The notes: generated from the sequence alone by a model not told the origin. A DNA stretch of 64,000 bases from Phycisphaerae bacterium (GCA_963666835.2 CAXXGO010000006.1:1248001-1312000); one strand, 5' to 3'. Shown: positions 21,137 through 46,396, numbered from the stretch's first letter. A program made the numbers and translations.

Positions 21137-21276
21137 CGTCTAATTCTCCTGCTCTTCTCGTCAGCGTCGTCGCGGACGGCTGGTCGGGCTATGCTGCCGG
21201 CGAGGGTCGGCGGCACCCCGGCGTCTTGCCGAAGCGCCTTTTCAGTACGCGGCTTTCGCCGGGGAGGGTCGGGCAA

Positions 21277-22602: not shown

Positions 22603-22671
22603 TACCGCGGTTTGCGGCTTGTTTGTCTCGGCCGAACGCCGCTTGCTTCTCTTCGAGATCGCCCGAGGTCA

Positions 22672-24669: not shown

Positions 24670-24786
24670 CGGCCTATTCTCCGTGATGTCCCGGCACGCT
24701 CCACGACAACGGCGGCCATGCTCCAGGCCGGCCGGCTGTCGAGGGTTGCCTTTTCTATGTCCCTGCTCGCGGGTAGATTCCCGAGC

Positions 24787-27759: not shown

Positions 27760-27788
27760 TTGACATGGGCGTCGAGATTGGATATCGT
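27760..27788 (+). promoter_or_regulatory. Sigma70-like promoter
   Basis: TTGACA-N17-TATCGT, followed by a GGAGG SD and ATG at 27822. Confidence 0.6.
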
Positions 27789-27821
27789 AGTACGCGGTCT
27801 TCTATGGAGGGAGGGTAGGTC

Positions 27822-29261: not shown

Positions 29262-30090
29262 GGCACGGTCGAGGCACGAGACCTGCCACGATAGCGCGCG
29301 TCGCGCGAGGACCTCGTAGGGCAGGTCGAGGCACGAGACCTGCCGCAATAGCGCGCGTCGCGCTGAGGACCTCGTAGGGCACGGTCGAGGCACGAGACCT
29401 GCCGTCCTGGGTGGCCATGGGCAAGCGTCGCCGATTTGCGCAGCGACAGTACCGGTCGTCACTCGATCTCGCGTTAGGGTCATGGACCGTTCCGGCTTGC
29501 CCGTGATGCCTGCGGCTCGCCAAGCTCCACGGGTCAACAAGTTGACCCATGCCACCCGGTTGGCACCCCCTGTAGGGCACGGTCGAGGAACGAGACCTGC
29601 CACGATGGCGCGCGTCGCGCGCGGACCTCGTAGGGCACGGGTCGAGGCACGAGACCTGCCGTCCTGGGTGGCATGGGCAAGCGTCGCCGATTTGCGCAGC
29701 GAAGTACCGGTCGTCACTCGATCTCGCGTTAGGGTCATGGACCGTTCCAGCCTTGCCCGTGATGCCTGCGGCTCGCCAAGCTCCACGGGTCAACAAGTTG
29801 ACCCATGCCACCCGGTTGTCACCCCCCTGTAGGGCACGGTCGAGGAACGAGACCTGCCACGATGGCACGCGTCGCGCAAGGACCGGCGGCAGGTCTCGTT
29901 CCTCGACCATGCCCTACACCGGCCTGCGCTGCCCTATCAGCGCAGCGGGCGTAAGCGACCCGCCCCAATCGGTACGGCAAGCGTGAGCGACCCGCCGGTC
30001 CTGCCGGGTCAGCAGGTAGGATCCGTTCCCCGGACCGGCATCTGCTCCACGGGTCAACAGGTTGACCCATGACACCCGGTTGGCACCCCG
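29258..30090. repeat. Mosaic REP array with ~255-bp tandem duplication
   Basis: Seven GTAG REPs; units starting near 29374 and 29629 are near-identical; cacgggtcaac(a)agttgacccatg palindromes. Confidence 0.92.
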
Positions 30091-30114
30091 CGCACGTTTT
30101 TGCGCGGCGTAGCG

Positions 30115-30897
30115 CTAAAGGACTTCGTTGGCCATGTTGATGGCGAGTAATACGTCGGCCGCGTTGTGCTTGCCGTTGCGGTCGAGATCGACCTTTGTGC
30201 TCGGGGACCGACCTCCGCCCCGTTGAGCCCGGCCATCAGTGCGGCAAGATCCGGAAGGACGACTATTTCGGAGCGGCTCGTACGCGACGGGCTCGATCGC
30301 CATTCCGCTTGCGATCCGCATTCGCGCTGGACTCGACATCGTTGATAAGCCCAATGGTGAACGTCCCGCGGGCATTGTCCGACACCAGGAGTTTCAACGT
30401 CGCCAGATACGCCTTCGTGCCGTCCTGTTTGCTTACCGGCCCGGTGGAGCTTACCAGGATACTGGCCCCGCGGTATCCCTCTGATCTGGTGTCGGTAAGC
30501 ACGAGGGCGTCGTCGCGACGCCGGCGTGGATGAAATCAGCGCCGCGACGGGTTCGATCAGGAAGTTCTCGCGGTTCTCCTCCCCGGACTCCTGAGTGGAC
30601 GCATACGCGATCGGCTCGATGAAACCGACCGCTCCGCTGGTATAGCCCGACGGCTCGATCTGGACCTGGTAGGCGGCCAACTTCTCCTCTGTGGGCGACC
30701 AGTCGCGCACAAAGATGTCCACGGTAAGGGAGCTGCCCGGTGCCGCCGCTACAATCGCCGTCGGGCCATTCGGCATGGACTCGGAATCGACGGCCACCGC
30801 CTCCACTGAGAACGTGGTGAGTACTTGCTGATGCTACCGCCGTCAACGCCCCAACAACGCAACCGATTCGCAAGAAGACCTTGTCATTCTTGAACAT
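30115..30897 (-). CDS. Small secreted protein with cohesin-like domain and dockerin-like tail; several frameshifts
   Basis: Signal peptide; LTVDIFVRDW...LAAYQVQI...YLATLKLLVSDNARGTFTIGL; C-terminal VDLDRNGKHNAADVLLAI. Confidence 0.6.
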
Positions 30898-31077
30898 CCG
30901 ATGATTCTCCGAAGATTGGCTCTATTGATGACCGACCCGGCTGCTTCCGCCGGATCGCCGTACCGTAGCCGCGCGACTCAGCTCGCTGCGGTCCGGATCC
31001 GCCTCAGACGGTATCGTATACGAATCCGGGCGGGCTGAAAACTTGCCGGACAAACCCGCCTTTACGCCCCGTGCAGG

Positions 31078-31118
31078 AAAAGAAGCCGGCCCGCCCCCTA
31101 CAAGAGAGGGCGGCCGGC
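31078..31118 (-). terminator. Rho-independent terminator
   Basis: gccggc(c)cgccc...gggcggccggc stem plus T-run on the minus strand. Confidence 0.65.
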
Positions 31119-31170
31119 GTCGTAACGAGTCACTGGACGGCCCCACGGCCGTCAGCTTGGTCCGGCGAGC

Positions 31171-34073
31171 CTACGGGCACGGGATCGGGCAGCCGGTCTC
31201 CGCGTAGGTCTGGCCTTGGAACGCGAGCACGTCGCGCTGGATATCCGTGAAGTTGATTACCGCGTTCGGTACACACGGATCGATATCCATCGCGGCGAAA
31301 GTGATGCCCGGGCTGAAATCACCCTTGAAGGCCATGACGATCAACTGGATGTCCGTGAAGTTCATCGTGTCGTTGCAGTCGACATCGCCCATAGGCAGGT
31401 CGTCCCGGAAGCGGCGGGTGAAGCATACGCCCCGCATTCTGCTACGACCTCGTAAGTGCTGCTCGGGACGATGTTCACATCGCGGAGGATGGTATTACCC
31501 CACTCACTCGGCAGGCGGATTACCGGCGTATCGACCAGTGAACCGTCCACGTCGATGAACTTGTCGAGGCAGCCCCAAGTCGGAGAGGTTACGTGCAGAG
31601 CCACCGGCGCCACCGAGCCCATCGGCTGCGGAGTAACAGTGAACGCCTTCGGTCCCTCAGTTACCATTAGCGGCTCGACCGGGATAGCCGTTCCCACGCA
31701 TTCGCCGTCAAGGCACGCATCATCGCCGGTGCAAATGTCCTCGTCGTCGCATTCCGTACCGTTGATCTCGTAGTTCACGTCGCACAGGCCCGCCCCGTCG
31801 CAGATGTCGTGCAGATCGCACTGATCCTCGTAAGGGTCGCCGCAGGCCGTCCCGTACGCCTCGAATCTGCTCTGGCAGACCCCGACGGCATCACAAGTAT
31901 CCGGGTGGTCGCATTCCGAGTCCGAAGGATCACCGCACGGGGTCAGTTCCGGGCGCGGCGGGTGGGCACAAAGCCCGGAATCACACTCGTCAAACGTGCA
32001 TTCGTTCCCTTCGTCCGTACAGGCGATTCCATCCGGCTTATAGTTGGTCTCGCAGGATCCGGCCCCGTCGCAGGCGTCCGGGGCGTCGCAATCCGGGTCA
32101 TCAGGCACCGGGTTTCCACACGATGTACCCTCCGGGGCGTCCGACCAGGTGAAGGTGGACAGTTCCGGGATACACATCTCGCAATCATTACCGGGATTGC
32201 GATCGCCGTCCGCGTAGCAAACCGTGCCGATCACACAATCGTTGACCGTATCCACGTTGAGCACCACATCGCCCACGTTCTCTTCGAAACCGGCGACCCG
32301 GATGAAGTAGTCTTCCCCGGCGACGGTGGTCAGAGTCAACGCCGCCTGGAGATCGATTCCGCTGTCATCGTCGCAAGCGATCTCCGCACCGTAGCACTCG
32401 TCGTATACACTCAGGACCGGGTCGTTCGACGGGGCCATGGATGTGCCCGTCGTGCTGATGAACACGTCACCGCTGCAACTTGCGATGTACACGAACCAGA
32501 TGTCATGGTTCGAGTCCGGCTGACACGAAGCTTCCACCGAGTCCTCCCCCGCGCTGGCGTTCTGGCTGGTCATGGACCCTTCCACGGCCGGGATGGCATT
32601 CTCGCAGTTGTCGTTGCACTCGGGGTTATAGATTCCGACGCAGACACCGTATTCGTCGCACGCATCATCATCGGTACAAGGGTCACCGTCGTTGCAGAGG
32701 CTGCCTGTAGGCCTCTGAGACCAATCCTCGGTCGAGAGCCCCGGATTACACTCCTGGCAGTCGTCACTGGGGTTGAGGTCGTTAGTGGCGCGGCAGGTGT
32801 CGTCGATCAGGCAGTACCCGGCATCGAGCGTGCTCTCACAGATGTCGTCTACTTCGTTGCACGTGTCCGTCGTACACGGCAATCCGTCGGTGCAATCGCG
32901 ATCGACGCCTCCACTGCAAACACCGTCGAGACAAGCCTCGTCGACATTGCAATATTCCCCGTCGTCGCACTCGGTTCCGTTGATCTCGAAGTTATCCTGG
33001 CACGATCCGGCCCCATCGCAGGTGTCGGGGTTGTCGCAGTCCGTGTCTTCCGAACTGCCACATGGTTCGCCCGCCGCGATCAGGTTGTCCATGCACAAGC
33101 CCGCCCCGTCGCAGATGTCCGCACCGTTGCACTCGTTCACGGTCGGATCGCCGCACGGCTCGCCGTAGTCCTCCAGGTTCTCGTCGCAGTTGCCCGCTCC
33201 GTCGCACGTATCGGCGTGGTCGCACTCGCTCTCCGTTGAGTCGCCGCAAGCCGTTCCCGAAGGAAGCGCCGGGTGGGTGACCGCCCCGGTATCCGGGTCA
33301 CAGACGTCCTCGGTGCATTCTTCCCCATCGTCTATCGTCGTTAGCATTCCGGTGTCCGGGTTGCAGCAATAGACCTCGTCGTCGTAGTTAATCGTGTTTT
33401 CGCAGGTCTGACTGGGCAGGCATACGTCGTCCGTACAAGCGTTTCCATCATCGCAATCCTCGTTCGAGGCGCAGGCGATTGCGATGGTCGCCGACGTTTT
33501 GATCAGAGGCTCGATCAAATATCCGATCTCGTCGCGGATGAACGTGAAGCTGTCGCTTTCCACAAAGTCGACCGTATAAACCCCCGCCGCTCCGGCCGGC
33601 ACGTAGATGACCAGCGTGCCGCTGTAATACTCAAGACCACCGTCGGCTTTCCCGCTGCCCATTACCACCGCTCCGTACTCATAATCCAGAGTAACGGTGG
33701 CGACTACCGGAATGCTGGTTACCCCATTGAACGTGTAGTCGGTACGCCCCGAGTCGATGTACGCTCCGTCACCGGGCGAGCTGGGCCAACCATCCGGAAC
33801 CAGCGGGTCCCCGTTCCCATTGTCGTATCCCGATGCGTTGATCGTGCCCTGGTACGCACCCAGGTTCGGTCCGTCCATCTCCGGGTCCCAACCGGATAGC
33901 CTGATTTCCAGAGTCACCAACTGGTCACCACCGACCAGAGTGATCGTGTTGCCGTCAATGGTGTAGTCCCCGGTCGCGCTCACCGGTACCCATTGTATAT
34001 CCGCGCCTTGCGCGAATACCGTCAACACCGCCGTTAGACCACATCCCAATAACCATCCTCTCGCGGTCATCAT
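31171..34073 (-). CDS. Large secreted Cys-rich protein: cohesin-like N-domain, CDDG..CT.D.C repeats, PPC-like domain, X-module + dockerin-like tail; frameshift near 31389
   Basis: SD GGAGG; restoring one G gives ...TTCLWGDVDCNDTMNFTDIQ...DIDPCVPNAVINFTDIQ. Confidence 0.82.
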
Positions 34074-34537
34074 CGTTCCATCCTCCAAATTGCCCACGGA
34101 CTACCATATCGGCGCCGCGAAGTCTCGGTCTATTTCCGAACCACCTTCACGTCTAATGCGGTCACACTTCCCCTCAACAGACGTTACCGCGAGGCACCAA
34201 AAGCCCTCGCAGCGGGCGGACGCGGCCTCAGTCATCGGGCCGCAAAGTGCAGGCACAAGCGAGATAGGTGGACACTCGGGGAGAGATGAAGCGTACACGC
34301 CATCGCGATGCACCCTACCGCAGTTGCCACCCATGCCCGGCCTCCCGGCTGGGTGGTCGAACTCAGCGAACACAACCCGTCCTATATAGTCTCGCGTAGT
34401 CCGCCGAAAAATGCAAGGGGTAACCCGTTTTTAGCTCCGGGACGAAAAAAGCCAAGCCCCGGCGCAAGACACAGGGGAGGAGCGAATGTGTCCGCTCCTC
34501 CCCCGTGATAACCGTGCCTCTTAAGGTGGTGTCCCTA

Positions 34538-37261
34538 TTACGGACAGCTAATCGGGTCAGAGAATGGATAAGGCTGTCCCTCGAACCCTTGCACGCACCG
34601 CATGATATCCGTCATGTTGAGAATCAGATTGGGTATTTCCGGGTCCAAATCGGCTCTCTTGATGTCCGGGGCGGTGGGGCTGGCTTGGAATTTCTGGACC
34701 ATGGCCATTATGTCGTCCATGCTGACCAAGCCGTTTGGGGGTCCCCAGCCCGACCCGTCGAATGGGCCCACGATGTCCGCCCAGAACTTAGGCACAGGCT
34801 GGTCGGCAGTGGCAACCGGGATCGGATCGCCGAAGACCACGCCATCGGTGGTGCCGGATATCTCATAGTTTGTTGCTGGGGCGATCTCGCAATCGGCAAC
34901 GTGGATCATCGCCTCACTCCACACCCGGAAGAGCGGCACGCTGGAGACCCGCGAGATACTGTCACCGTTGGGTTCATCGATCCAGCCCACGACCCCCGAT
35001 GAGCCCGGGAAGAGCGTGCTGGAAATCATCTCCAACTGAAGAGCGACCGCTCCGGGCTCTTCGGGAATGAAGGACACGTACCGGCTCTTCAAGGCGCCTG
35101 TGGTCACAGACAGCGTGACACTGGGGGAGATTCGGAACGGGATCAGGTACGAACCGGAGTCACGGAGGAACGTGCTCGCGGGGTCGTCCACGAGCGCGAC
35201 TTCGAACGTGCTGCCCGGGGTTGCGTCCGGTGAGACCGTCAACGTGTAATCCCCGAGGTACTTGCGATCGGCCCCGACGTCGACGCTGTCGCTCATACTG
35301 ATCGCCACGATCTCTAAGAACTCGCAGCCTGCGACGGGGAGCGACGAGACCGACTGAAACACATAATCCGCCCTGGTTTCATCGACCTGGACTCCCTCAG
35401 GGCAATCGACGTACAGCGTGCCGGAACCGCTCGTTCGCGTGATGACGAGCGTCGCCTGATAGGCCATCAGGTCGTCAATCTCCTCAAGGTATACCGTGAA
35501 TTTCGTACTGCCGGCGGGGGCGACCCCCGTGGCGGCAGCTTCCAGCGTCATCACGCCATCCACCGGTTCGCATGCCGGATCCGGCGGGCAAACCGTGCCG
35601 GCCGGCCTGGCGATTCCCGGGTACAGCAGGCACTCGTCGGACGTTACCTCCACGCAGGAACCATCGGCGAGGCAGCAGGCTCCGGTGGCCAGTTCCGAGA
35701 GGGCCGCATACGCGTTGACAAGCCCCCAACCGTATTCCGTGTCGTAGCCGGTGTCGCCCAGATCCGTACACGTCTCCTCCATAAGGTCTTCGACCTCGTC
35801 CGGAGTCAGGGAATCATCTACGGAGAGAATCAGCGCCGCTACGCCCGCTGCGTACGGAGAGGCAAACGAGGTCCCATCGACCCAATCGTAATCTGACGCG
35901 ACCTCGCCGTCCGTGCCGGTGCGATCGGTTGTGCCGACGGATACGCCCGGAGCTGAGAACGCCAGTCCCGGACCCCAGTTGCTGAACGACGCCCGGTTAC
36001 CGTGCCGGTTCACCGCTCCAACAGCGACGACGGTCGGCAGGTTGGCCGGGTACGAGGGCGAGTTGTCGCTTTCGTTTCCCGACGCCGCGAAGTGGACTAC
36101 CCCGGCGTCCCGCGTCGTTTCGTACTTCGTCGTCACCGTACTCGACGAATCGAAGCCGTTACTGTTGTTAGTGACTCGCGCCCCGCTGGTTTGCGACCAG
36201 TTGATTGCGCTGACCAGCCAACTGATCAAGAACGAGCCGGCCCCGTCACATGGCGTGTTGGCTACGGAGTACTTGGCGGCCTTAACCTTGCAGCCGGGGG
36301 CCGAACCGACCACTCCGATGCTGTTGTTGATCACGGCCGATACGCAGCCGGCCACCGCCGTGCCATGGTTGTCGCACTCGTTGTGCGGTCCGCCGTCGGT
36401 GCCGTGCCCGGTGAAATCCCAGCCGGTGACTTGGTTGAGGTCGGGGTGGTCTTGCTGGATGCCGTCGTCCAGAATGAGCACCTCTATTGACGGGTCGCCC
36501 GTTGTGACGTCCCATGCCTCGACGGCATCCATGTCCATGTCCGCAGTGCCGCCGCTTTGTCCGGTGTTGTGCAGCCCCCACAGCGTGTTGAAGTAGTTGT
36601 CGTTGGGGATCAACATCCGTCGGGCGGTCATCATCATGTCGGATTCGGCGAACTTAATCTCGGGCTGCGTCGCCAGAGTATTGGCGAGCGACAGGACCTC
36701 GAAACCATTGCGAGAATTCACCGTCATACGATAGACGCCCGGCATGTTGCTGAAGTCGCGGTCTTTGATCACCCCGTCGACCCAGCTTTCCAGAAATGCC
36801 TCGGCTTGCTTCGGAGGAACGTCCTCAACGAAACCGATGAGCAAGTCCGGAGTAATAATGAGGGGGTCGCCGTGGCTGTCCTCAAAAACCGGAGATACGA
36901 AGTCGATAGCCGGATTACCCGCCAAGGTCGCCACCGCCGCTTCGATGCCTGATGCGGTCCGGTGTCCGTTCGGGACCGTCGCCCGCGACCAATTGTTCAC
37001 GGCCATCCGTCGCGTGTCCTCGAGCGCGATTCCTGCAGTTCGTAACGCAGCTTCCGGACCGGCGTCCTCTAACGGACTGTCGTTACGGATAGCCACCTCC
37101 GAGGTGTTCAGGCCCAGGTGGACCTGTTGCTTGAAGTAAGAATAGTAGTAGTCCGGCGGCGCGTCGCCTTGGGCGGGCACAACGGATGCCATTACGGCTA
37201 CGATAAGTACCGAAGCGCCCAGCGCTCCGACGATGCGGCACTCAACAGAACGATGCTTCAT
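34538..37261 (-). CDS. S8 (subtilisin-like) serine protease with cohesin-like domain and X-module + dockerin-like tail
   Basis: Catalytic ILDDG, HGTAVAG, GTSFASP and oxyanion ASGN; prodomain; C-terminal extension homologous to neighbours. Confidence 0.93.
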   Translation of the reverse strand: MKHRSVECRIVGALGASVLIVAVMASVVPAQGDAPPDYYYSYFKQQVHLGLNTSEVAIRNDSPLEDAGPEAALRTAGIALEDTRRMAVNNWSRATVPNGHRTASGIEAAVATLAGNPAIDFVSPVFEDSHGDPLIITPDLLIGFVEDVPPKQAEAFLESWVDGVIKDRDFSNMPGVYRMTVNSRNGFEVLSLANTLATQPEIKFAESDMMMTARRMLIPNDNYFNTLWGLHNTGQSGGTADMDMDAVEAWDVTTGDPSIEVLILDDGIQQDHPDLNQVTGWDFTGHGTDGGPHNECDNHGTAVAGCVSAVINNSIGVVGSAPGCKVKAAKYSVANTPCDGAGSFLISWLVSAINWSQTSGARVTNNSNGFDSSSTVTTKYETTRDAGVVHFAASGNESDNSPSYPANLPTVVAVGAVNRHGNRASFSNWGPGLAFSAPGVSVGTTDRTGTDGEVASDYDWVDGTSFASPYAAGVAALILSVDDSLTPDEVEDLMEETCTDLGDTGYDTEYGWGLVNAYAALSELATGACCLADGSCVEVTSDECLLYPGIARPAGTVCPPDPACEPVDGVMTLEAAATGVAPAGSTKFTVYLEEIDDLMAYQATLVITRTSGSGTLYVDCPEGVQVDETRADYVFQSVSSLPVAGCEFLEIVAISMSDSVDVGADRKYLGDYTLTVSPDATPGSTFEVALVDDPASTFLRDSGSYLIPFRISPSVTLSVTTGALKSRYVSFIPEEPGAVALQLEMISSTLFPGSSGVVGWIDEPNGDSISRVSSVPLFRVWSEAMIHVADCEIAPATNYEISGTTDGVVFGDPIPVATADQPVPKFWADIVGPFDGSGWGPPNGLVSMDDIMAMVQKFQASPTAPDIKRADLDPEIPNLILNMTDIMRCVQGFEGQPYPFSDPISCP

Positions 37262-37741
37262 TGGTCTCCTCCCTAACTCCCTCGACACCAATAAGGTAGT
37301 ATACAGGCATTTTCGTCCTTATGTGTCGTTTTTTGAAAGTTCTCCTCGGACTCTGCCGTCCGGCGAATCCTCGTGCCGGTACCGACCGGGCGGGGGCGTT
37401 ACGATCAACTGCAGCCTTCGGCGGTCGTTCTCGGCCTGAGCTGCTTGGATTACGCCATCCTTTCCACTTAGTTGTGAAGCCATACTCTGTAAAGTAGTCT
37501 GACGACGGGCTAAGGTGGGACGGACCCAAGCTCGCTGAAACAGGGCATAAGTAGCGAGCTGCGGAGTGATTCCACCAGGGCGAACCCTGCCTGGGCTCCT
37601 TAGGGGCCTTTCATTGCCGATAACCTCCCGCCACCGTCTGTTATAGCGCACTTATCCCTCTCAACATGCGTTCCACCTGAAGTCCACTCCGCGTATTAGG
37701 AGAAAACGGGCACTCTGGCGCCCTAATGTCAAAGGAGGGAT

Positions 37742-37802
37742 CATAGCGCAGGCTTCCAGCCTGCCCGAGGCGCTGCAGGCGTAACGCAGGCTTCCAGCCT
37801 GC
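37742..37802. repeat. Two copies of a REP-like palindrome (gtagcgcaggcttccagcctgc family)
   Basis: gcaggcttccagcctgc occurs twice here and again at about 46632. Confidence 0.65.
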
Positions 37803-38334
37803 TTCCGCCACTGCGCCGGCTGTAAGGAGGGAATCCCGGCATAGACGTTCGGCTTGGGCTACCAGTACTGCTTCGGTGTCCAACCCGGGGATACCAGTAG
37901 TGAGGAGTCTCCGCGCGGCCTGGGCGAAGCCGAGACCGCGCGGGTCTGCCGGTGTTCAGGCTCGACCGGACGGGGTTCTCCCGCGAAAAACCGGCGGTGA
38001 AATGCTCAGCGACGGGCGTGAGCCTGAATCTGAGCTGCCAGCCTTGTGAACGGCCCCGGGGTAAAGTCCGGGTGTCGTTTGGGGGGCGATCTCCTGGGGG
38101 TCTGGGAGTCGTTTTCGCCCTCTGGAGCGGTTGTTGGTTGCAGTGTAAATGGACGATTGGCCGAATATCGTGTAGTTTTGGCCCGTTTTCGAGGGTTATT
38201 GTGGTGTTGCTGGCGTCCGTTGGTTTTCCCGGCCGTTCTCAGCATGAAACATAGAGGGTGGCGTGAGGTGGCAGCTTCGGGGAGGTAACGTGGAGAATCT
38301 CGATTATCGGCGTGGATCTCAACATAGAAAACTC

Positions 38335-38364
38335 TTGACATCGCTGGGTCGGATTGTGTACTAT
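38335..38364 (+). promoter_or_regulatory. Sigma70-like promoter
   Basis: TTGACA-N18-TACTAT about 310 nt upstream of the ATG at 38675. Confidence 0.6.
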
Positions 38365-38674
38365 CGGCCTTCGAGCGGAAAATCGGCTGCGGGACAAGTG
38401 CCGACGCCGGTTCGTGTTTCGCCGTCGTGATGATTGTTGCTACGCCGTTGTGGGGCCATTTCGAAACCACAGGAGGGTGAAACTGGCTATCTCGAAAACA
38501 GAACGATGAGAGGCGTTGTTGTGCTGTTGGGCTCAGGCGCTTGTGCCTGCGCGCGGCGGCGTGGGTTGTGTTAATTTACAGGAAGGGGCATGTTCGTGGC
38601 ACCCTTGGCGGGAGTTCATAGGGTGTTTCATCGAGCACGGTCGTTGTTTTCAGAGTCTATGGAGGTGCGGGTCT

Positions 38675-41600
38675 ATGAAGGGTAAGGGTTATCTCAAATG
38701 GCGTCCCGTTTTGGCGGCTCTCGCCGTAGGCATGATCGCCTATGGTTTGAGCTTGCATGGAGCGCCGGCAGGCCAGGAGCCGAGTGGCGACCTGGGGGGA
38801 AACGACGTGGTGGTCAACGTTGGGGGAGTACCTGACGCCGGTTCCGCGATGTCTCGGTCTGAAACGATGATGGCCGCTCCGCGCGAGGAATTCCGCGTGC
38901 GCGAGGCGATCATGATCTCGGCCGAGCCCGCGGGTGGCGCGAGTGCGTTGGCACGGGGCACTACTCCGGTAGGCGGTGCCTGCGATTGCGATGCCGAGTG
39001 CGTCGAGCCTGGTGCGGACGAGTGCCTTGTGGCCGCCTGCATCAACGGCGTTTGTGCGCATAGGCCTCAGCTCGTTGGTAACCCCTGCGATCTGGACGGC
39101 CTCTATTGCACCCGCGATGAGTGCATGCTCAGCGGCGAAGACGTCGTCTGCGTTGCCAAGAGCGACGGTGCGGGTGGCGCGTTGAGCCCCTGCGCGAAGA
39201 CGTGCGTCGGTGGCGACAATGCCGGCAACTGGTGCTACGAAGCCGAAGATTGCCCGGCGGGTTCGTGTATGCCGCGTTCGTCCGGTGGGGCAACGGCGGT
39301 CTGCAACGAGACCGAGGATTGGTGCGAGCTTTCGACCGGTATGGGTCGTTGCTGCAACGGCCTGACGTGTTCGCTCGCGACCGAGGCTTCTTGTACCGGT
39401 GGTGGCGGCAAGTGGTTGCGGATCGGCAACCCGGACGATCTGGGCCATTGCTGGTGCCCGGAGTACGGCAGTGGTATTGCTCCCCGCGGTGACGAGACCG
39501 ATGAAGTTGCTGAGGTCATCGGCACGTACAAGATTTGCACGTACACCGAGGACGCTTGCTACGTCGATAACGATTGCCGCAAAGTGTGCGACGACGGCAA
39601 CTACGCGATTTGCGACGACAACGACGATTGCGATGCGGGTATTTCTTGCATCGCGAACCCCTGCGTCGCGGATGTTGACCAGTGCCAGGACGGTTATCTC
39701 ACCATCGGTGACGATTACTCGTTGGAGAGTGGCAAGGCCATGCGTCTGAACGAGTTCCGCTTCCGTGGCGGTGCTCAGGACATTGGCGAGGCGATGTTGT
39801 TCATGTTCTTCGATGCGAACGGGCTCTTCGTGGATTCGTTCTCGGCTACGATGGGGCTTCCGGGCATCCACTACTACGGCTACGGAATTGACTGCTATCC
39901 GGACTGCGACATCAATCCGGACAATGGGGATTCGCCCGAGAATCCGCCGTTCGTCATTCCGGCCGAAGGTTTTGTGGTAATGCGTGGATACGTCGATTCC
40001 ACCGACCACGAGACCACGACTTCCGCCACCTGGGCGTCGACGGATGCCGTCGACATCGGTCTGAACGACGCTGCCGAGATGTGGTGGGACATCGGGGCCG
40101 GCGAGGTCATCGGTGACTTCCCCGACTTGGCAACCGACATTCTGGCGTTCGAGCTGGTCGGCCAGGTGATCGATTCCGGGATTCAGCCGGAAGGTGCTTG
40201 CTGTACGGTCGAAGGCGCTGTGGGTGTCTGCAACAACACCTACATGTGGGAGTGTGGTATCTGCGCAGAGCACCCCGACGCGGCGTGTAGCTGGTACCGC
40301 GATTGCCCGCCGGGCGACTATTGCACGTTTAAGAACTGGTTCGGTCCGACCTCGCACGACGATCTCGTCGGTGGCGTGACCGAAGACTGCGCGACCTTCA
40401 CCGGTTGCACCGTTGGCGCTTGCTGTGCCGCGGATGGCAGTTGCACGCCGGACACCACGCCGGGCGATTGCGACACTGCCGGTGGTACGTTCCTCGGCTT
40501 TGCTACGAGTTGTGAGCCGAACTGCTGCCCGCCGCCGGATACCGAGACGGGTGCGGACGCGGCCTGCGACGTCTGGCAGTGCCACGACGGAACCGATTGG
40601 GTCGATCCGTACGACATGTGCGGTGCGAGCGATCCGGATGATCCGGACTGCGATACCGGTGCGGGCGAGACCTGCATGCTTCGCGCAAGCGGTCCGACGG
40701 AGTACACGATCAACATCCCGGCGTTCGGCGCTGCCCCCAACACATTCACCTTCATGGGTGATGCCAGTGGGCACGATCCGTACTTCACGGAAGTTGACGG
40801 CGACGACTGTAACCTCGGTGGTGAGGTCGACGACGGCTGGTACGAGGCCTTCGTGGTTGTCAACAATGACGCCGACGAGTTCGACTGTGCCATCGTTACG
40901 ATCGACTTCTGCTGCACCGATCCGATTCAGACCCCGGTCTACATCGTTATGAAGGACTGCTGCCCGTGTCCGGGTGGCATCTGCTGGGTCACTCTGGATC
41001 AGAATCCGGACGGCACGACGAAGTCCGGTTGGGGTCCTGACTGCGACGTAGAGGTCGACGGCGTCGACCACTGCTGCCAGGATGACAACTTCACCGGCCA
41101 GTTCATGGTTCCCTCCGGTCGGTACAGTTGGCAGATCCCGTCGGGTATGGTTTGCGACGATACGACCTACGATTGCCAGGACGACGATGATTGTCAGCCG
41201 GGCGTTCCGTGCGTGAGCACGGCCGGCCCGTACACCGGTCACGTCACGGTCGAGGAATGCCCGCGGGCGGCTTGCTGCCTGAACCTGTGCGTCGGTGGTA
41301 CGAACGATGGTGAGTATTGTGAGGACGATGCGGGTTGCCCGGGCGGCGCCTGCAACAATGTTTGCGAGATCCGCACGAAGCTGACCTGTGAGGATCATGG
41401 CGGCGACTTCCTGAGCTTCGACACCGGCACGGTTGTAACGTGTGCGGCGAGCCCGTGTGCTACGGGTGCGTGCTGCACCGGTGCGGGTACCTGCGAAGAT
41501 GGTGCGGCCTACGATACCGAGGTCGAGTGCGAGGCTGCCGGCGGTGTGTACCATGGTTACGTGCAGTGCGACGAGCACGAGCCGTGCGATGTCTGCCCGT

Positions 41601-43462
41601 TCCTGACGGCCACGAACTGCAAGGAAGATGATGACGATGGCTTCATCGTGATTAGTGACCGGGCCAACGAGGTCCGGCTCGCGGACGACTTCCGCCCGGC
41701 CGGCACGCAGATCGGCGAGCTTTGCTGGACTGCGGGTTACTACGGTGGAGGCGACGGTGTTGGTAACTTCGAGTGTGCCGATGCCCCGCCGCCGGACAAC
41801 TGGGTTGTGCGCTTCTATCAGGATGCTGCCGGTGTTCCCGGTGCTGAGGTTGGTACGCCTGGTGGTCAGACGCTGACGATTCTGGCGTCGAACCAGCACG
41901 GTGGCGGAAGCCGCCTCTGGGACTATGCCGCCAGTATTCCGACCGCGGTGTTCGTAACGCCGGGTGAGTGCTACTGGATGGAACTCACCGGTATGGGTGA
42001 AGGTCCGACAGGTTGCCACACGTACTGGTCGACTGCTCTCGAGGGCAACGACTACAGCATGCGGGACAATCTGGATTACGGTAACTACGGTCCGGAGGAC
42101 GTTGACAATCTGGACATGATCTTCTGTGTCGATACGGGTCTCTCGGGCACCAGCGACTGCGGTGATATTCTCGCGGCCTGCTGCACCTGCCCGGGTTGCA
42201 CGCCTGATCTGACTCAGGAAGAGTGCGTTGACGATCTGGAAGGTGTCTGGCGTTTGGGTAACACCTGTGCGACAGCCGCATGTCCGGACGTTGCCCCGTA
42301 CAACGAAGAGTGCGACGATGCCGAGACGGATACGGCGGCGGATACCTGGGTATGCCGCGGCGGTACCAACGACGGCAACCCGTGCGACATCGCCAACGTC
42401 CACGGCGACTGCCCGGATGACGGCGACGACATCGGGTACTGCGTTGCTTATCGCATTGTCGGGTTCGAGAACGTCTGTGCGGCTCGCGAGAATACCGCCA
42501 ATCCGCCGACCGAATGCGGAGGCACCGGTAATCTGCGTTACGACATCTGGTACCAGTACACCGCGCCGGGAACCGGTGAGTTCAAGGTGTCGATGTGCCC
42601 GTCGGATGTCTGTGATGGAGCGCTGTGGGATACCATGGTCGCCATCTATGATTCCGACACGTGCCCGATGGTAGCGGATGACGAGATGCTCTGCGGCGAC
42701 GACGAGTGCGACTCGGCCGGTCCGTCGGAGATCACGGTTTCCGTCACTTCCGGTCAGACGTACACGGTTCGGATCGGTGGTTGGTCAGCTCCGCTCACCT
42801 ACGGTAACCCGCGTGGTTGGGGTGAGGTTGAGTTCAGCTTCATCGATGGCGATGCCGCCTACGAGCCGCCGGTTGCGGCGCCTGCCCCCGAGAATGGCCC
42901 GAAGAACCGGTACATCTCGATCAGGTCGGCGAACGTCGGTAGCCCGGTTGCGCTGCAGGTGATCGTAGCGTCCAGCCAGTACTTCCCGGATTCGGTCGGC
43001 GAGACCAAGTATGTCGGTGCGCAGACGCCTAGCGGTTACTATCCGCTGATTGAGACTCCGCTGCTACAGGTCTGGCCGGAAGAGGATCTGCACATCTTCG
43101 ATTGCATGATCCACCCGGTCGCTACCTTCGAGGTGCGGGCCGGTGACGGAGCAGGTACTTGGTCCGATCCGCTGGTTATCGCTACGATTACCAAGCCTGG
43201 TGGGAAGAATCACGGCGACATCGTCGGGTCCTTCACTGGTACGTGGCAGCCGCCGGAAGGCAACATGAGTATGAACGACCTGATGGCCGCGCTGCAGGCG
43301 TTCGGTAATGCCGCGACGGCTCCGCCGAAGCACTGGGCGGACGTACATGATGACGGCCCGAACCAGTTGGTGAATATGTCGGACGTTCTGTTGTTGGTGA
43401 ACGCGTTCGGTGGTTCTGCGTATCCGTACAATCCGGGTACCGCGGCCGTACCGTGTAGCTGA
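38675..43462 (+). CDS. Very large secreted Cys/Asp-rich protein with GACC and C.GG.N.G..C repeats, PPC-like domain, X-module + dockerin-like tail
   Basis: SD GGAGGT and signal peptide; the C-terminal KNRYISI...GDIVG...ADV...NQLVNMSDV..LVNAFGG.AYP aligns by eye with the S8 tail. Confidence 0.88.
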   Translation: MKGKGYLKWRPVLAALAVGMIAYGLSLHGAPAGQEPSGDLGGNDVVVNVGGVPDAGSAMSRSETMMAAPREEFRVREAIMISAEPAGGASALARGTTPVGGACDCDAECVEPGADECLVAACINGVCAHRPQLVGNPCDLDGLYCTRDECMLSGEDVVCVAKSDGAGGALSPCAKTCVGGDNAGNWCYEAEDCPAGSCMPRSSGGATAVCNETEDWCELSTGMGRCCNGLTCSLATEASCTGGGGKWLRIGNPDDLGHCWCPEYGSGIAPRGDETDEVAEVIGTYKICTYTEDACYVDNDCRKVCDDGNYAICDDNDDCDAGISCIANPCVADVDQCQDGYLTIGDDYSLESGKAMRLNEFRFRGGAQDIGEAMLFMFFDANGLFVDSFSATMGLPGIHYYGYGIDCYPDCDINPDNGDSPENPPFVIPAEGFVVMRGYVDSTDHETTTSATWASTDAVDIGLNDAAEMWWDIGAGEVIGDFPDLATDILAFELVGQVIDSGIQPEGACCTVEGAVGVCNNTYMWECGICAEHPDAACSWYRDCPPGDYCTFKNWFGPTSHDDLVGGVTEDCATFTGCTVGACCAADGSCTPDTTPGDCDTAGGTFLGFATSCEPNCCPPPDTETGADAACDVWQCHDGTDWVDPYDMCGASDPDDPDCDTGAGETCMLRASGPTEYTINIPAFGAAPNTFTFMGDASGHDPYFTEVDGDDCNLGGEVDDGWYEAFVVVNNDADEFDCAIVTIDFCCTDPIQTPVYIVMKDCCPCPGGICWVTLDQNPDGTTKSGWGPDCDVEVDGVDHCCQDDNFTGQFMVPSGRYSWQIPSGMVCDDTTYDCQDDDDCQPGVPCVSTAGPYTGHVTVEECPRAACCLNLCVGGTNDGEYCEDDAGCPGGACNNVCEIRTKLTCEDHGGDFLSFDTGTVVTCAASPCATGACCTGAGTCEDGAAYDTEVECEAAGGVYHGYVQCDEHEPCDVCPFLTATNCKEDDDDGFIVISDRANEVRLADDFRPAGTQIGELCWTAGYYGGGDGVGNFECADAPPPDNWVVRFYQDAAGVPGAEVGTPGGQTLTILASNQHGGGSRLWDYAASIPTAVFVTPGECYWMELTGMGEGPTGCHTYWSTALEGNDYSMRDNLDYGNYGPEDVDNLDMIFCVDTGLSGTSDCGDILAACCTCPGCTPDLTQEECVDDLEGVWRLGNTCATAACPDVAPYNEECDDAETDTAADTWVCRGGTNDGNPCDIANVHGDCPDDGDDIGYCVAYRIVGFENVCAARENTANPPTECGGTGNLRYDIWYQYTAPGTGEFKVSMCPSDVCDGALWDTMVAIYDSDTCPMVADDEMLCGDDECDSAGPSEITVSVTSGQTYTVRIGGWSAPLTYGNPRGWGEVEFSFIDGDAAYEPPVAAPAPENGPKNRYISIRSANVGSPVALQVIVASSQYFPDSVGETKYVGAQTPSGYYPLIETPLLQVWPEEDLHIFDCMIHPVATFEVRAGDGAGTWSDPLVIATITKPGGKNHGDIVGSFTGTWQPPEGNMSMNDLMAALQAFGNAATAPPKHWADVHDDGPNQLVNMSDVLLLVNAFGGSAYPYNPGTAAVPCS

Positions 43463-43750
43463 TTAGGTTGATTGACTGAGACCCTTCGGGGTGGGTGGGC
43501 ATCGGCCCGCCCACCCCGCCGGGGTCATCGGAATTTGAAATAGAGGTGTGCGAGACCCGCTAGAAGGAAGAAAGGAGTTGTGGAGGAGGTGGGCCCGCCA
43601 AGCCCGCATAGGTGGTTGTTGGGTGTCATCTTGTCGGTGCGAGCGAGTTTCTTCCGGCCGCGCCCTGGGATGATGGAATGATTGGATTACAATTTTGTGG
43701 TACAGGTAGGTTTGGGGAACGGTTTCCCTATTTCTTTGGAGGTATGGAAA

Positions 43751-46396
43751 ATGAAAGCAGGTAGGTTGTGTTGTGTTTTGGTTGTTGGGCTGCTTGCGGT
43801 AAGCGCCTACGGCCAGGAGCTCAGGTGGCAGCCGGTCTCGTCGTCGGGGACATTCTCGGTCGACGACAACATGGGCACGCCGGGTACGCCGTCTGAGATC
43901 TTGATTCCGGCCGGTGGCGTCACCGTCACGCTCGAGTTGAAGGTTAGCGGTTGGGGTGAGGCTCCCGGGGCGCCGCTGCTGGGTGCCTATCAGGGTACGT
44001 TGGATAGCGCGGCTTCGTACAGCAACGGCGTTGGCGCGGACATTGGTCCGCTCAACCCGCTGACCGAAGACGGCTTGTTCATTGACACCGCCCGGGCGGA
44101 CTTCGTGTACTTCGGCCGCACGCCGTTGGCCGCGGTGTTTGTCGGCACGTTGGACTACGAGATGGGTTCGACCTGCATGGGTGGTTTCCCGCCCGACCCG
44201 GGTATTATCCAGTACGGTGCTACGCTGATTCTGGACATCCCGGCTGCCGCGAAGGGCACGTACGAGATCACGTTGAACCCGGACTCGTCGAAGACGTTCT
44301 TGAACAACGATATCGCCGAGTTGATTCCGGGTCTGGTTCGCACGACCGGTCTCGTGACGATCGTCACGGGCCAGTGCTGCTATGACCTCGGACCGGCTGT
44401 CCAGTGTGCTGATGGCATCACGGAAGCTGAGTGCGATGCTCTTACCAGTCCGGGTAAGGCGTATCTCTTCTACGGCGGCGATAATTGCTCGACGCGCGTG
44501 TGCCCGAGCTGTCAGACGAACGCCGACTGCAATGACAATGACGATTGCACGGATGACACGTGCAACACTGCGACGTATCTTTGCACGAACGCGCCGATCT
44601 ACAACGTGCTGACCGAGTGCTGCGATCCGGATGGCGCTGGCATCACGTTGATCGACGACGGCCTCATCTGCACCGAGGATGTCTGCGATCCGGATACCGG
44701 TGACGTTGCCCACAACCCGTTGGCGGCCGGCACGACTTGCGATGACGGCAATCCGTGCTCGATCGACGACGAGTGTGACGGTACGGGCGATGCTGGTGCA
44801 TGTGCGGGTACCTTCCCGGGCGATGCGATGATCGCTTGCACCGTGCTGGCTGATTGCCCGACCGGTTGGTTCTGCGAGAATGAGGATATGTCCTCGCCGA
44901 TGTACGGCTTCTGCGATTGCAGTCTGCAGACCCCGCTGTGCATCGAGTTCGACGGTGTCTGCTACGAAGAGGGTGATCCGGTCATCGCGACCGTCGCCAT
45001 TGGTGCAGGTTCCGCGATCGTAACGAGTGGTCAGTTCCTGATGACGTATGATCCGACCTGTCTCGAGTTCGTAGACATCGGACCGTGCGAAGGTGACGAT
45101 CAGTTCCTGCTGGAGGTTGACTCCTGGGTCGACGAAGTTGCCGGTAAGATCTGGTACGCCGTTCTGGCGGCTGACGATGCGATGACCCCGAACGAGGGCA
45201 CGGTCGGTCCGTACGACATGGCCTGCATCGAGTTCACCAAGTTGGGCGAGTGCGACCCGTGTGGCATGTGCTTCATCAGCGAGAACCCGTACAACACCCT
45301 GCTGGGTGACTATCACGGTGCGAATGTTCCGCTGGATAACTGTGGCTGCAGCGACGAGATCGTTCTCGACGGCGAAGTCACGATCGTCTGCCCCGAGGGT
45401 GCCGACGTGAATGTGGACTGCGGCGTTGTCGATGCCGAGGTTCTGTGGGATCCGCCTTACGCCGAGGACGAGTGCCTGGGCGCTTTGGACGTTGTCTGCA
45501 TTGCCGAGCACGATGGTGGCCTGCCGATTTCGCAGGACATGATCATGAACGGTGGCAACTTCCCGCAGGGTAAGACGTACTTCCACTGCATCGCGGAGAA
45601 TGAGTGCGAGAGCACTGCCGAGTGTGTCTGGACCGTCAATGTTTCGGACAAGCAGACCCTGGACGTTGAGGTTGACCTCTCGCCGGCGGTCGTTCCGGGC
45701 GCTCTGACGCGTTGCATCATGTTCGACCTGATCTACAACTGCGCCGCCCCGCAGACGGTTTGCGCGGAAGTCACGTTCGGTCCGCCGTACAACTTCCCGA
45801 ACCACGGTGTGGCGACGCTGGATGTGGATAAGGGCAACTTCGAGTGCATCGAGGCGCGTGATCCGCTCCATACGCTGCGTTCGTTCAGCGACATCGAGTG
45901 CGACGAGGTTACGGGCAATTGGAAGGTCGTCTTCAAGGGCGATCCGCTAATTGGCGGCAACTGGTTGGTCCCGGGTAACCTGGACTTCTATCAGGTTGGC
46001 GACAATGGCCCGAACCACGTTGACGTTCTGGACTTCGGTGTCTACATGTGGCAGATCGGTGCGGATTACGGCACCGGTAACACCGAGTGTGGCGAAGACT
46101 GTGCGTACGGTTCGTTCCCGAATGCCGACCTGAACGGTGACGGCATCGTGGACGTGGACGACTTCGATCTCATCGACGCCAACTTCATGGCTGAGAGCAA
46201 GCTCGGGTGCTGCGGTTACGCGACCGCCGGCGCTTCGGAGCCGGTGCTCGACATCAGCGTGAAGGAACTCATCCGCGACGGTCGCGGTGAGCTGGCCGCT
46301 GGTGATATCAACAACGACGGACGTCTGAACCTCGAGGACATGGCTCTGTACGCACAGGGTGCTGTCCAGATCCAGAAGGGGAAGCGCGTTCGCTAG
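43751..46396 (+). CDS. Secreted scaffoldin-like protein: cohesin-like N-domain, Cys repeats, second cohesin-like domain, HYR-like domain, dockerin/EF-hand tail
   Basis: SD GGAGGT; 'GQFLMTYDPTCLEFV' cohesin-like motif; ADLNGDGIVDVDDF and GDINNDGRLNLEDM loops. Confidence 0.85.
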   Translation: MKAGRLCCVLVVGLLAVSAYGQELRWQPVSSSGTFSVDDNMGTPGTPSEILIPAGGVTVTLELKVSGWGEAPGAPLLGAYQGTLDSAASYSNGVGADIGPLNPLTEDGLFIDTARADFVYFGRTPLAAVFVGTLDYEMGSTCMGGFPPDPGIIQYGATLILDIPAAAKGTYEITLNPDSSKTFLNNDIAELIPGLVRTTGLVTIVTGQCCYDLGPAVQCADGITEAECDALTSPGKAYLFYGGDNCSTRVCPSCQTNADCNDNDDCTDDTCNTATYLCTNAPIYNVLTECCDPDGAGITLIDDGLICTEDVCDPDTGDVAHNPLAAGTTCDDGNPCSIDDECDGTGDAGACAGTFPGDAMIACTVLADCPTGWFCENEDMSSPMYGFCDCSLQTPLCIEFDGVCYEEGDPVIATVAIGAGSAIVTSGQFLMTYDPTCLEFVDIGPCEGDDQFLLEVDSWVDEVAGKIWYAVLAADDAMTPNEGTVGPYDMACIEFTKLGECDPCGMCFISENPYNTLLGDYHGANVPLDNCGCSDEIVLDGEVTIVCPEGADVNVDCGVVDAEVLWDPPYAEDECLGALDVVCIAEHDGGLPISQDMIMNGGNFPQGKTYFHCIAENECESTAECVWTVNVSDKQTLDVEVDLSPAVVPGALTRCIMFDLIYNCAAPQTVCAEVTFGPPYNFPNHGVATLDVDKGNFECIEARDPLHTLRSFSDIECDEVTGNWKVVFKGDPLIGGNWLVPGNLDFYQVGDNGPNHVDVLDFGVYMWQIGADYGTGNTECGEDCAYGSFPNADLNGDGIVDVDDFDLIDANFMAESKLGCCGYATAGASEPVLDISVKELIRDGRGELAAGDINNDGRLNLEDMALYAQGAVQIQKGKRVR

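Follow-up and report, generated by a model that had tools for sequence, protein, structure and literature searches.

Genes for putatively secreted proteins with cohesin-fold and dockerin-fold modules in a Phycisphaerae bacterium: local members of a protease-rich set that is probably assembled at the cell surface

Five adjacent genes of a Phycisphaerae bacterium (GCA_963666835.2), referred to here as A to E, are probably the local members of a genome-wide, protease-rich set of proteins that is assembled at the cell surface by cohesin-dockerin docking, the folds of both modules being predicted. The genes lie at positions 30115-46396 of the window, the 64,000-nucleotide stretch of DNA that was analyzed (CAXXGO010000006.1:1248001-1312000), and form two divergent groups, one made up of the minus-strand genes A to C and the other of the plus-strand genes D and E. 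Their features are collected in Table 1.

Table 1. Features of genes A to E, with positions counted from the first nucleotide of the window.
Feature	Position	Strand	Evidence or remark
Gene A	30115..30897	-	small, putatively secreted; signal peptide, cohesin-fold module, ordinary dockerin
Gene A, cohesin HMM positions 18-78	30582-30761	-	frame 1
Gene A, cohesin HMM positions 94-158	30308-30511	-	frame 2
Gene A, own-genome dockerin HMM positions 11-31	30207-30269	-	frame 1, iE 0.043
Gene A, own-genome dockerin HMM positions 33-56	30139-30210	-	frame 0, iE 9e-4
Gene B	31171..34097	-	signal peptide, cohesin-fold module, dockerin tail in different frame
Gene B, cohesin-fold module	about 33477-33998	-	genome-built cohesin HMM; model pLDDT 94.3
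Gene B, other features			long Cys-rich repeats, jelly-roll-like domain, diverged sandwich
Gene B, dockerin tail	31171-31437	-	tail HMM positions 118-183, iE 1.9e-21; own-genome dockerin HMM, iE 6.5e-6
Gene C	34538..37291	-	putatively secreted subtilase; signal peptide, propeptide region, S8, cohesin-fold module, tail
Gene C, S8 domain	about 35723-36481 (residues 271-523)	-	Pfam Peptidase_S8
Gene C, cohesin-fold module	35105-35569	-	cohesin HMM
Gene C, FN3-like and dockerin tail	34541-35089	-	tail HMM; predicted model and fold matches
Gene D	38675..43462	+	giant Cys-rich putatively secreted protein, about 1595 aa from likely ATG
Gene D, FN3-like and dockerin tail	42899-43441	+	tail HMM; blastp to C tail
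Gene E	43751..46396	+	adaptor-like; signal peptide, cohesin-fold module, Cys-rich linker, ordinary dockerin
Gene E, cohesin-fold module	43817-44362	+	cohesin HMM, E 6e-81
Gene E, possible second cohesin-like domain	about 44864-45391	+	CipA cohesin match only E 0.61
Gene E, ordinary dockerin	about 46013-46345	+	own-genome dockerin HMM, residues 778-835 (iE 4.9e-6) and 873-888

Much of what a preliminary description of this locus had claimed was borne out, including the two divergent groups of consecutive genes with two recurring modules, which were recovered with blastp and HMM searches. As described, the N-termini of all five proteins resemble signal peptides when the translations are judged by eye, with positive charge followed by a hydrophobic stretch. 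Proteins B and E are alike over ~300 N-terminal residues (33% identity, E 7e-44), and the beta-rich domains of B and C also match each other (E 6e-7). A genome-built HMM of this domain matched A, B, C, and E and not D, in keeping with the four carriers originally reported. C and D are 35% identical over their last 190 residues (E 4e-29), the tails of B and C match at E 5e-9, and the dockerin-like ends ascribed to all five proteins were found again, either as a predicted dockerin fold or as dockerin-profile matches.

The only recognizable enzyme among the five is, as first stated, the S8 protease. Peptidase_S8 (PF00082) in gene C (E 2.3e-45, 155.6 bits versus a cut-off of 21.8) was the sole above-cut-off Pfam family in A to E, and the translation contains DDG, HGT, and GTSxA-type motifs, which we take to be the subtilase Asp, His, and Ser motifs. 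In a Pfam scan of the window's genes, no glycoside hydrolase family was reported for A to E. In gene D the Pfam scan yielded no recognized enzyme, only a sub-threshold match to GBD_T9SS_assoc (E 0.002), and D has two paralogues in the same genome (83% and 61% identity). Sub-cut-off matches in gene E were to HYR (E 0.015, a weak HYR-like stretch) and EF-hand_7 (E 0.0049).

Genes A and B have broken reading frames. Gene A is without a single open frame: its signal peptide, two cohesin-like halves, and two dockerin repeats are in frames 0, 1, 2, 1, and 0, and at least 4 frame changes are needed in the gene as assembled. Gene B needs one, as its body (31362-34097) and tail are in different frames, with the break near 31390 adjoining a GGG run. 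These breaks may be assembly errors or strain differences, because many 1-nt indels separate the window from public short-read contigs about 98-99% identical to the locus: an alignment of 990 nt across gene A has 9 one-base gaps, and 16 gaps fall within 29895-31600.

For the beta-rich domain shared by A, B, C, and E, a cohesin fold with the nine-stranded beta jelly-roll topology is predicted with high confidence. The AlphaFold model of the B module, made with a 21-sequence alignment, had a pLDDT of 94.3 and a pTM of 0.89. A Foldseek search of the PDB with this model gave 88 matches at E<=1e-3, the top ones almost all cohesins (best 6kgf_C, E 4.6e-7). In a VIA-align comparison with 48,161 chains, ranks 1-19 were all cohesins (Z 13.9-10.8, 128-147 residues covered), led by 6kgc_A (Z 13.9, rmsd 2.8, 140/144 residues), and pilins and adhesins followed at Z 9.2 or less. 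Structure prediction and fold search thus upheld the cohesin-like character proposed earlier for this domain. By profile, the family is divergent: Pfam Cohesin (PF00963) matched one of 21 modules, at E 0.02, and none over the cut-off, and a PDB profile search with the module returned only the ScaE cohesin 2zf9 (E 0.26). Pfam-grade cohesins in the genome number 5 matches, 1 of them over cut-off, versus 33 Pfam-grade dockerin matches, and the divergent family found here supplies candidates for the partners that the Pfam count missed.

Two kinds of ending were distinguished. Proteins A and E have ordinary dockerin endings, while B, C, and D share a tail module of 184 residues, in which an FN3-like sandwich is predicted to precede a dockerin fold. 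In the tail model (pLDDT 81.5), the FN3-like part is formed by residues 1-106 (best Foldseek E 7.6e-4; VIA Z about 7). Residues 109-189 aligned to solved dockerins with rmsd 2.3-2.6 over 60-66 of 62-70 residues (4dh2_D, Z 6.6, 66/70 residues; 2ccl_B, Z 6.3, 60/62; 5nrk_B, Z 6.3, 63/68, 22% identity; 3ul4_B, Z 6.1, 62/63), and these Z values of 6.1-6.6, which are in the middling range by the alignment tool's own scale, gain weight only because a small domain is near-completely covered and the sequence profiles agree. Six of the seven matches at E<=10 in a PDB profile search with the tail were cellulosomal dockerin or X-dockerin chains (best 2y3n_B, E 0.019, and 4wi0_B, E 0.025). When the C-terminal half was compared by hhalign with 30 Pfam-grade dockerins of the same genome, probabilities were 67-88% (P 3e-6 to 7e-6). 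The second half of the tail is therefore predicted to have the duplicated loop-helix dockerin fold, of about 65 residues. Dockerin_1 (PF00404) matched 0 of 20 tails and was not reported for E in the Pfam search. NCBIfam NF041540 (dockerin_GC) had 11 matches in the genome, all on tails and all below the 29-bit cut-off (18.8-22.8 bits; gene C, 18.8 bits by hmmscan).

Canonical dockerin calcium loops have Asp or Asn at positions 1, 3, 5, 9, and 12. Read from the translations, E has this acidic pattern in each of its two loops and B has it in its first, and calcium dependence is plausible for these. Most tails, including those of C and D, have an invariant Trp at first-loop position 1 and a non-acidic residue at position 3, making calcium binding by this loop doubtful in C and D; the second loop of the tails is longer than canonical. 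Cysteine occurs among the last residues in 54/54 full tails, which close with a conserved near-terminal Cys-Pro, and a mid-domain Cys motif is present in 49/54.

The preliminary description had read the five genes as a candidate self-assembling surface complex. The locus is not self-contained, however: it is one local patch of a genome-wide set. The genome has 64 ORFs with the tail, 29 copies of the cohesin module in 26 ORFs (about 25 genes), and 46 Dockerin_1 matches, of which 33 were over the cut-off. The cargo of the tail set is peptidase-rich. A Pfam peptidase was found in 19 of the 60 tail ORFs outside the window (S8 x7, C25 x4, C10 x2, M1 x2, and M43, trypsin, C1, and M10), a further one is a PAD_porph deiminase, and no glycoside hydrolase family was reported in these ORFs at E<=1e-4 (Pfam). 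Many tail proteins have lectin, FG-GAP, beta-propeller, or beta-helix domains.

Candidate anchors are also present in the genome. The proteins L062 and L063 have a signal peptide, a cohesin module, Asp-rich repeats, and a C-terminal IPTL-CTERM membrane-anchor domain scoring above the Pfam cut-off (PF18203; 24.1 and 26.1 bits, respectively, cut-off 20.8), and L062 also scored 27.4 bits on TIGR04174 (cut-off 20.5). L104 appears by sequence to have the same layout. A broken gene at 27760-29261 in the window has an IPTL-CTERM match of only 17.0 bits, below the cut-off.

Among 60 relatives, 25 have the tail and 25/25 of these also have the cohesin module, 3 have only the cohesin module, and 32 have neither; the relatives are kin, and this co-occurrence overstates independence. 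Outside the family, the tail occurs in a single genome (G055), again together with the cohesin module. One relative (G011) lacks the tail but gave 30 matches to the cohesin module, so the tail is not the sole partner of this cohesin, and perhaps no partner at all. Other families of the same order are rich in NF041540 matches: G017 has 30 and G050 has 32. No conserved five-gene synteny was seen, and homologues of gene D (33-42% identity) occurred in only 6/40 relatives.

We propose the following scheme. The tail and dockerin proteins would be exported by Sec and would then cross the outer membrane. The S8 protease C and other enzymes, along with non-catalytic Cys-rich proteins like B and D, would plug the FN3-dockerin tail into cohesin modules, and A and E would do so with their ordinary dockerins. 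The acceptor cohesins would sit on other members or on the three IPTL-CTERM-anchored cohesin proteins (L062, L063, and L104). A disulfide between the sandwich cysteine and the near-terminal cysteine might staple the dockerin to its FN3-like neighbor, as the X-module supports a type II dockerin. The outcome would be a cell-bound layer of multiple proteases that degrades proteinaceous matter. In C and three peptidases elsewhere in the genome, the cohesin module is directly before the protein's own tail, an order that would allow an intramolecular role instead.

Alternatively, the tail could act chiefly as a tag for secretion or sorting at the C-terminus, recognized for covalent attachment to the surface or for passage through the outer membrane, with a role like that of the type IX CTD. 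It would then be no cohesin ligand, and the cohesin modules would serve otherwise; we consider this unlikely. The position of the tail fits such a role, as nearly all tails in the genome end 0-12 residues before the stop and, of the 154 best among 3,093 representative proteins with the tail in public data (E<=1e-3), 136 have its end <=15 residues from the C-terminus; the closing Cys-Pro fits it as well. The type IX cargo of Porphyromonas includes C25 gingipain-like and C10 proteins and the Porphyromonas-type arginine deiminase, and the cargo here resembles it. The sandwich half also aligns to the type IX substrate CTD 8glk_D (Z 6.1, 72/75 residues), but this chain shares its Z with other generic FN3-type sandwiches, about 45 in all. 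Against a pure tag is the second half of the tail, with its predicted dockerin fold and its matches to dockerin profiles, as is the finding that no relative has the tail without the cohesin module. Further, 24/154 best representatives have at least 2 near-full tails (one has 7), some of them internal, and RHS-type proteins continue for about 450 residues past the tail. The tail is not a strict end tag.

A bolder reading, in which export and docking are combined, is likewise tentative and rather improbable as a whole. The FN3-dockerin tail with its cysteine staple would be a dual export-and-docking tag of one Phycisphaerae family, with which ~60 proteins per genome are kept at the surface, plugged into hidden single-module cohesins, some of them anchored by IPTL-CTERM and exosortase. 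The cargo would be gingipain-, streptopain-, and subtilisin-like proteases and an arginine deiminase, and the system would be a diderm, protease-based counterpart of the cellulosome and of the type IX cargo coat, whose two-module members could chain into an extended layer.

Chaining was central to the preliminary description, in which the two-module proteins A, B, C, and E could polymerize head-to-tail and so present the protease on a mesh that is rich in disulfides and dependent on calcium. The parts for this exist: 10 ORFs in the genome have the cohesin module together with the tail, E, L112, and L113 have it together with an ordinary dockerin, both modules occur in 37 of the 154 best public representatives, and B, D, and E are very Cys-rich. 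To our knowledge, however, proteins with both modules in known systems do not bind their own kind, the order of the hierarchy being maintained by specificity classes. The two dockerin kinds found here fit an anchor-adaptor-enzyme hierarchy at least as well, and dedicated IPTL-CTERM cohesin anchors are present; the mesh is speculative and, in our estimate, improbable. That the modules serve adhesion or substrate binding, with glycans, the surfaces of prey cells, or the cell's own wall as targets instead of each other, is very improbable: the cohesin model does resemble pilin and adhesin domains (Z 8-9), binding-type domains such as lectins are frequent on tail proteins, and Pfam-grade cohesins are few where orphan dockerins are common, but cohesins clearly outrank adhesins structurally, the two modules are present or absent together across relatives, and the divergent cohesin family offers the partners lacking from the Pfam count.

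If docking of the proposed kind occurs, one uncultured planctomycete family keeps a large part of its secreted proteases organized on the surface of its cells, and it does so with cohesin-dockerin parts that are invisible to standard annotation. The purely hypothetical planctosome would gain a testable parts list (cohesin modules, two dockerin kinds, and IPTL-CTERM anchors), and two large unannotated domain families would be added. Such a layer would help to explain the breakdown of protein-rich matter by particle-attached Phycisphaerae, and the pairs could serve as new orthogonal protein-docking parts.

The secreted enzymes are likely clipped to the cell surface, as cellulases are in cellulosomes. 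The tail resembles the X-dockerin of clostridial type II scaffoldins (4wi0_B, 4u3s_B, 2b59_B), in which an Ig/FN3-like sandwich is directly before the C-terminal dockerin; the tail profile spans both parts of 4wi0_B and 4u3s_B, with weak E-values (0.025-0.052). Unlike those, the tail is carried by dozens of enzymes rather than by a scaffoldin; a Cys pair is conserved in it, and its first loop is altered in most copies. The only curated family touching the tail is NF041540, "GC-type dockerin domain-anchored protein", a 67-position model without the FN3-like half, on which all scores here are below cut-off; a search of the literature library used here found no paper with the term "GC-type dockerin".

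A cellulosome-like complex has been inferred from genomic evidence only in Ca. Stygibacter (Cloacimonadota; Williams et al. 2021, PMC8542988). In that system, signal-peptide enzymes with C-terminal dockerins include S8/S53 and C25 gingipain-like peptidases, and there are also GH18, GH57, a giant tandem-cohesin scaffoldin with CBMs, and type IX CTD attachment. The cohesins described here, in contrast, occur as single modules scattered across about 25 genes, and the scanned ORFs yielded no glycoside hydrolase.

The closest comparison is with the "planctosome", which the preliminary description had mentioned and which is indeed a published proposal for the freshwater Nemodlikiaceae, also Phycisphaerae (Andrei et al. 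2019, ISME J, PMC6461901). It has cohesin and dockerin modules with no cellulose link and a proposed peptidase cargo. Its adaptor combines dockerin, HYR, and cohesin, and its anchor joins a cohesin to thrombospondin type 3 repeats; the modules are of Pfam type, the cargo consists of M12B and M14 metallopeptidases, and the anchor has a lamin-tail domain. The class, the pairing of cohesin with dockerin, the peptidase cargo, and the lack of cellulases are shared with the system here, whose modules are fold-level relatives and not Pfam members. Protein E, which joins a cohesin to a dockerin and has a weak HYR-like stretch, resembles that adaptor, and L062, L063, and L104, with a cohesin and then Asp-rich repeats, resemble that anchor. 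The differences from that model are that both main modules here are invisible to Pfam, that the peptidases are of S8, C25, C10, C1, M1, M10, M43, and trypsin type, that the anchors end in IPTL-CTERM, and that most cargo has the composite FN3-dockerin tail, in 64 copies. Lamin-tail-domain/P-domain anchors, M12B, and M14 were absent from the Pfam matches of 71 scanned ORFs (E<=1e-4) and of the window genes (E<=0.1). Overall, the system is a variant of the non-cellulosomal planctosome idea and not a new kind of system.

The five secreted-protein genes at the centre of the preliminary description are real and lie in two divergent groups, with A-C encoded on the minus and D-E on the plus strand. 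The N-termini of all five products were judged by eye to be signal-peptide-like, and pairwise blastp comparisons bore out the existence of shared modules. B and E are alike over their ~300 N-terminal residues (E 7e-44), B and C over the beta-rich domain that is also found in A and E (E 6e-7), and C and D over their final 190 residues (E 4e-29), while the C-terminal modules, or tails, of B and C match at E 5e-9. In the assembly, however, the frames of A and B are interrupted. Across A to E, Peptidase_S8 in C was the sole Pfam family above cut-off, and an Rfam scan of positions 26000-48000 returned no match. Homologues of D were distant only, and were present in 6 of 40 relatives.

Cluster genes and neighbouring features, in window positions
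Feature	Position	Strand	Description
Secretin and PilM-like genes	15748-25299	-	Secretin with TPR repeats (PF00263, E 1.4e-26); PilM-like ATPase-fold protein
Repeat clusters	27404-27550; 29258-29918		~58-66 nt repeat, direct and inverted copies
Sixth secreted-protein gene, beside cluster	27760-29261	+	Split over at least five frames
Five-gene cluster	30115-46396	-/+	A, B, C (-); D, E (+)
B tail	31171-31437	-	In a different frame from the B body
B		-	911 residues plus tail; Cys-rich, without recognised enzyme
C	34538-37291	-	917-residue subtilase; Pfam Peptidase_S8, E 2.3e-45
D	likely start 38675	+	1648-residue ORF; Cys-rich, without recognised enzyme
E	likely start 43751	+	904-residue ORF; Cys-rich, without recognised enzyme

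Gene A has no single open frame in the assembly, as its signal peptide is in frame 0, the halves of its beta-rich domain are in frames 1 and 2, and its dockerin repeats are in frames 1 and 0. The break in B adjoins a GGG run. The sixth gene ends in Asp-rich thrombospondin-like repeats followed by an IPTL-CTERM-like hydrophobic tail (TIGR04174, 17.0 bits, under the cut-off). Contigs from four public runs of two studies are about 98-99% identical to the window. Many one-base indels separate them from it, including 9 gaps in 990 nt over gene A, 16 gaps in 29895-31600 and, in the sixth gene, 1-nt indels at 27813, 27864, 28087, 28614, 28808 and 28984, those at 28614 and 28808 being common to all four runs. 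Because such near-identical contigs carry so many one-base indels, the frame breaks are probably assembly errors or strain differences and need not mark pseudogenes. Two D-like paralogue copies elsewhere in the genome (G000:C1:1709862-1711221 and G000:C6:1473857-1476331) have internal stops, 5 TGA and 1 TAA in one and 1 TGA in the other, which represent either decay or additional assembly errors. The repeat clusters are located between the broken sixth gene and gene A; this repeat is considered multi-copy and REP- or MITE-like, as its summed contig depth in the public runs reached up to ~100 times that of its flanks.

Predicted structures and sequence profiles support the cohesin and dockerin folds that had been suggested for the shared modules. 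The beta-rich module, modelled from a 21-sequence alignment (pLDDT 94.3, pTM 0.89), had cohesins as nearly all of its top Foldseek matches (best E 4.6e-7), and in an exhaustive structural scan cohesins occupied ranks 1-19 with nearly full coverage (Z 13.9-10.8); pilins and adhesins came next, at Z 9.2. The module is therefore predicted to be a cohesin fold with insertions. In E, an internal domain is tentatively a second cohesin; it matched the CipA cohesin at only E 0.61, and its paralogue gave a sub-threshold Pfam Cohesin match.

The tail model (pLDDT 81.5) comprised two parts, of which residues 1-106 structurally matched an FN3-like sandwich and residues 109-189 could be aligned over nearly their whole length to four dockerins of solved structure (Z 6.1-6.6, rmsd 2.3-2.6). 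Sequence profiles are consistent with a dockerin assignment. The tail profile had seven matches in the PDB, six of them to cellulosomal dockerins or X-dockerins (E 0.019-0.5), hhalign against dockerins of the same genome gave 67-88% probability, and sub-threshold matches to the NCBIfam GC-type dockerin model were confined to tails. The C-termini of A and E match an HMM of ordinary dockerins, and the two dockerin kinds are linked by the tail of B, which scores with both that HMM and the tail HMM. All 54 full tails have a cysteine in their last residues and 49 of the 54 have a cysteine motif in mid-sandwich, a pair that likely forms a disulfide staple.

The two module families extend well beyond the cluster, and the proposal of a self-contained five-gene complex does not hold. 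In the 6.0-Mb genome, an HMM of the C and D tails matched 64 ORFs, in almost all of which the tail ends 0-12 residues ahead of the stop, and an HMM of the beta-rich domain matched 26 ORFs with 29 domains in total; two of the ORFs are the pieces of gene A. Ten ORFs have both modules. Neither module was recognised in a Pfam search; Pfam Dockerin_1 gave 46 matches in the genome (33 above cut-off) and Pfam Cohesin only 5 (1 above cut-off). In two RHS/YD-repeat proteins (L049 and L050, G000:C1:1474984-1489136) the tail module is internal and followed by ~450 more residues, so that it is not a terminal tag there.

The protease theme holds: in a Pfam scan of 71 further ORFs of the genome, peptidases accounted for 19 of the 60 tail-bearing ORFs (S8 x7, C25 x4, C10 x2, M1 x2, M43, trypsin-type, C1 and M10). 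A Porphyromonas-type arginine deiminase occurs among the other tail-bearing ORFs, as do FGE-sulfatase-like domains, DUF7901, lectins, propellers and RHS proteins, and at E<=1e-4 none of the 71 yielded a glycoside hydrolase family. In three small proteins, encoded at G000:C1:308573-311085 and G000:C6:522448-523602, a signal peptide and a cohesin module are combined with Asp-rich repeats and an IPTL-CTERM ending, a layout that would be expected of a surface anchor for dockerin-bearing partners. Five consecutive tail-bearing genes (L106-L110, G000:C6:590820-606890) encode an arginine deiminase of the Porphyromonas type, a papain-like C1 peptidase that has a lectin domain, two gingipain-like C25 peptidases and one unknown protein; as a set they recall the type IX cargo of Porphyromonas, yet with the FN3-dockerin tail. 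Lying 5-14 kb upstream of the cluster, the secretin and PilM-like genes might provide the cluster proteins with a route across the outer membrane.

Among 60 relatives, the tail was found in 25 and the cohesin module in 28, including all 25 with the tail, although this co-occurrence is suggestive only because kin genomes are not independent. Neither module was found in 32, and a single genome outside the taxonomic family of the window (G055) carries either; it carries both. The cohesin module without the tail was observed in three relatives, G002 and G041 with one match each and G011 with 30. As G011 (99% completeness) carries the cohesin module alone, this cohesin family can occur without the FN3-dockerin tail. 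In public data, 3,093 representative proteins matched the tail profile at E<=1e-3, and 1,995 did so at the stricter E<=1e-10. Of the best 154 representatives, 136 have a C-terminal tail, 24 have at least two copies (one has seven) and 37 have a cohesin module alongside. Four metagenomic proteins (P0006, P0007 of 2714 aa, P0008 and P0009) have 3-7 tandem tail modules, some with a cohesin module between copies. A homologue, P0004, is listed with Pfam PF27052. The names of ten clusters gave no information, two being "hypothetical protein, Planctomycetota bacterium" and the other eight clusters having no name. A search for related loci with a single tail as query gave no confirmed relative; relatives of one housekeeping gene were titled Phycisphaerae, Phycisphaerales or Planctomycetota.

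The best-supported reading of these data is a non-cellulosomal cohesin-dockerin system, of which the window cluster is one local patch. Such a system would keep secreted peptidases and Cys-rich binding proteins attached to one another and to the IPTL-CTERM cohesin anchors. The data show the predicted folds, the copy numbers, the cargo, the anchors and the co-occurrence. We infer that cohesin modules bind the dockerins, with specificity between the two dockerin kinds, and docking would depend on calcium, with a disulfide in the tail. The main rival, in which the tail acts primarily as a sorting tag, keeps some weight because the tail is terminal and its cargo type IX-like, but the predicted dockerin fold of the tail, the proteins with multiple tail copies and the co-occurrence with the cohesin module argue against it. 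The head-to-tail mesh of the preliminary description would be possible for proteins with both modules but, unlike the folds and the protease theme, found no support.

One published account proposes a peptidase-centred cohesin-dockerin complex in Phycisphaerae, the "planctosome" (PMC6461901), and another makes a similar inference for Cloacimonadota, where S8 and C25 peptidases are involved (PMC8542988). Literature searches, including dockerin, cohesin and Phycisphaerae as terms, found no description of the tail, and a search for "GC-type dockerin" found no paper. What is new in this study is a pair of module families that escape Pfam, a composite FN3-dockerin tail that carries a cysteine pair and occurs in high copy number, the particular peptidase families taking part, and cohesin anchors with an IPTL-CTERM ending.
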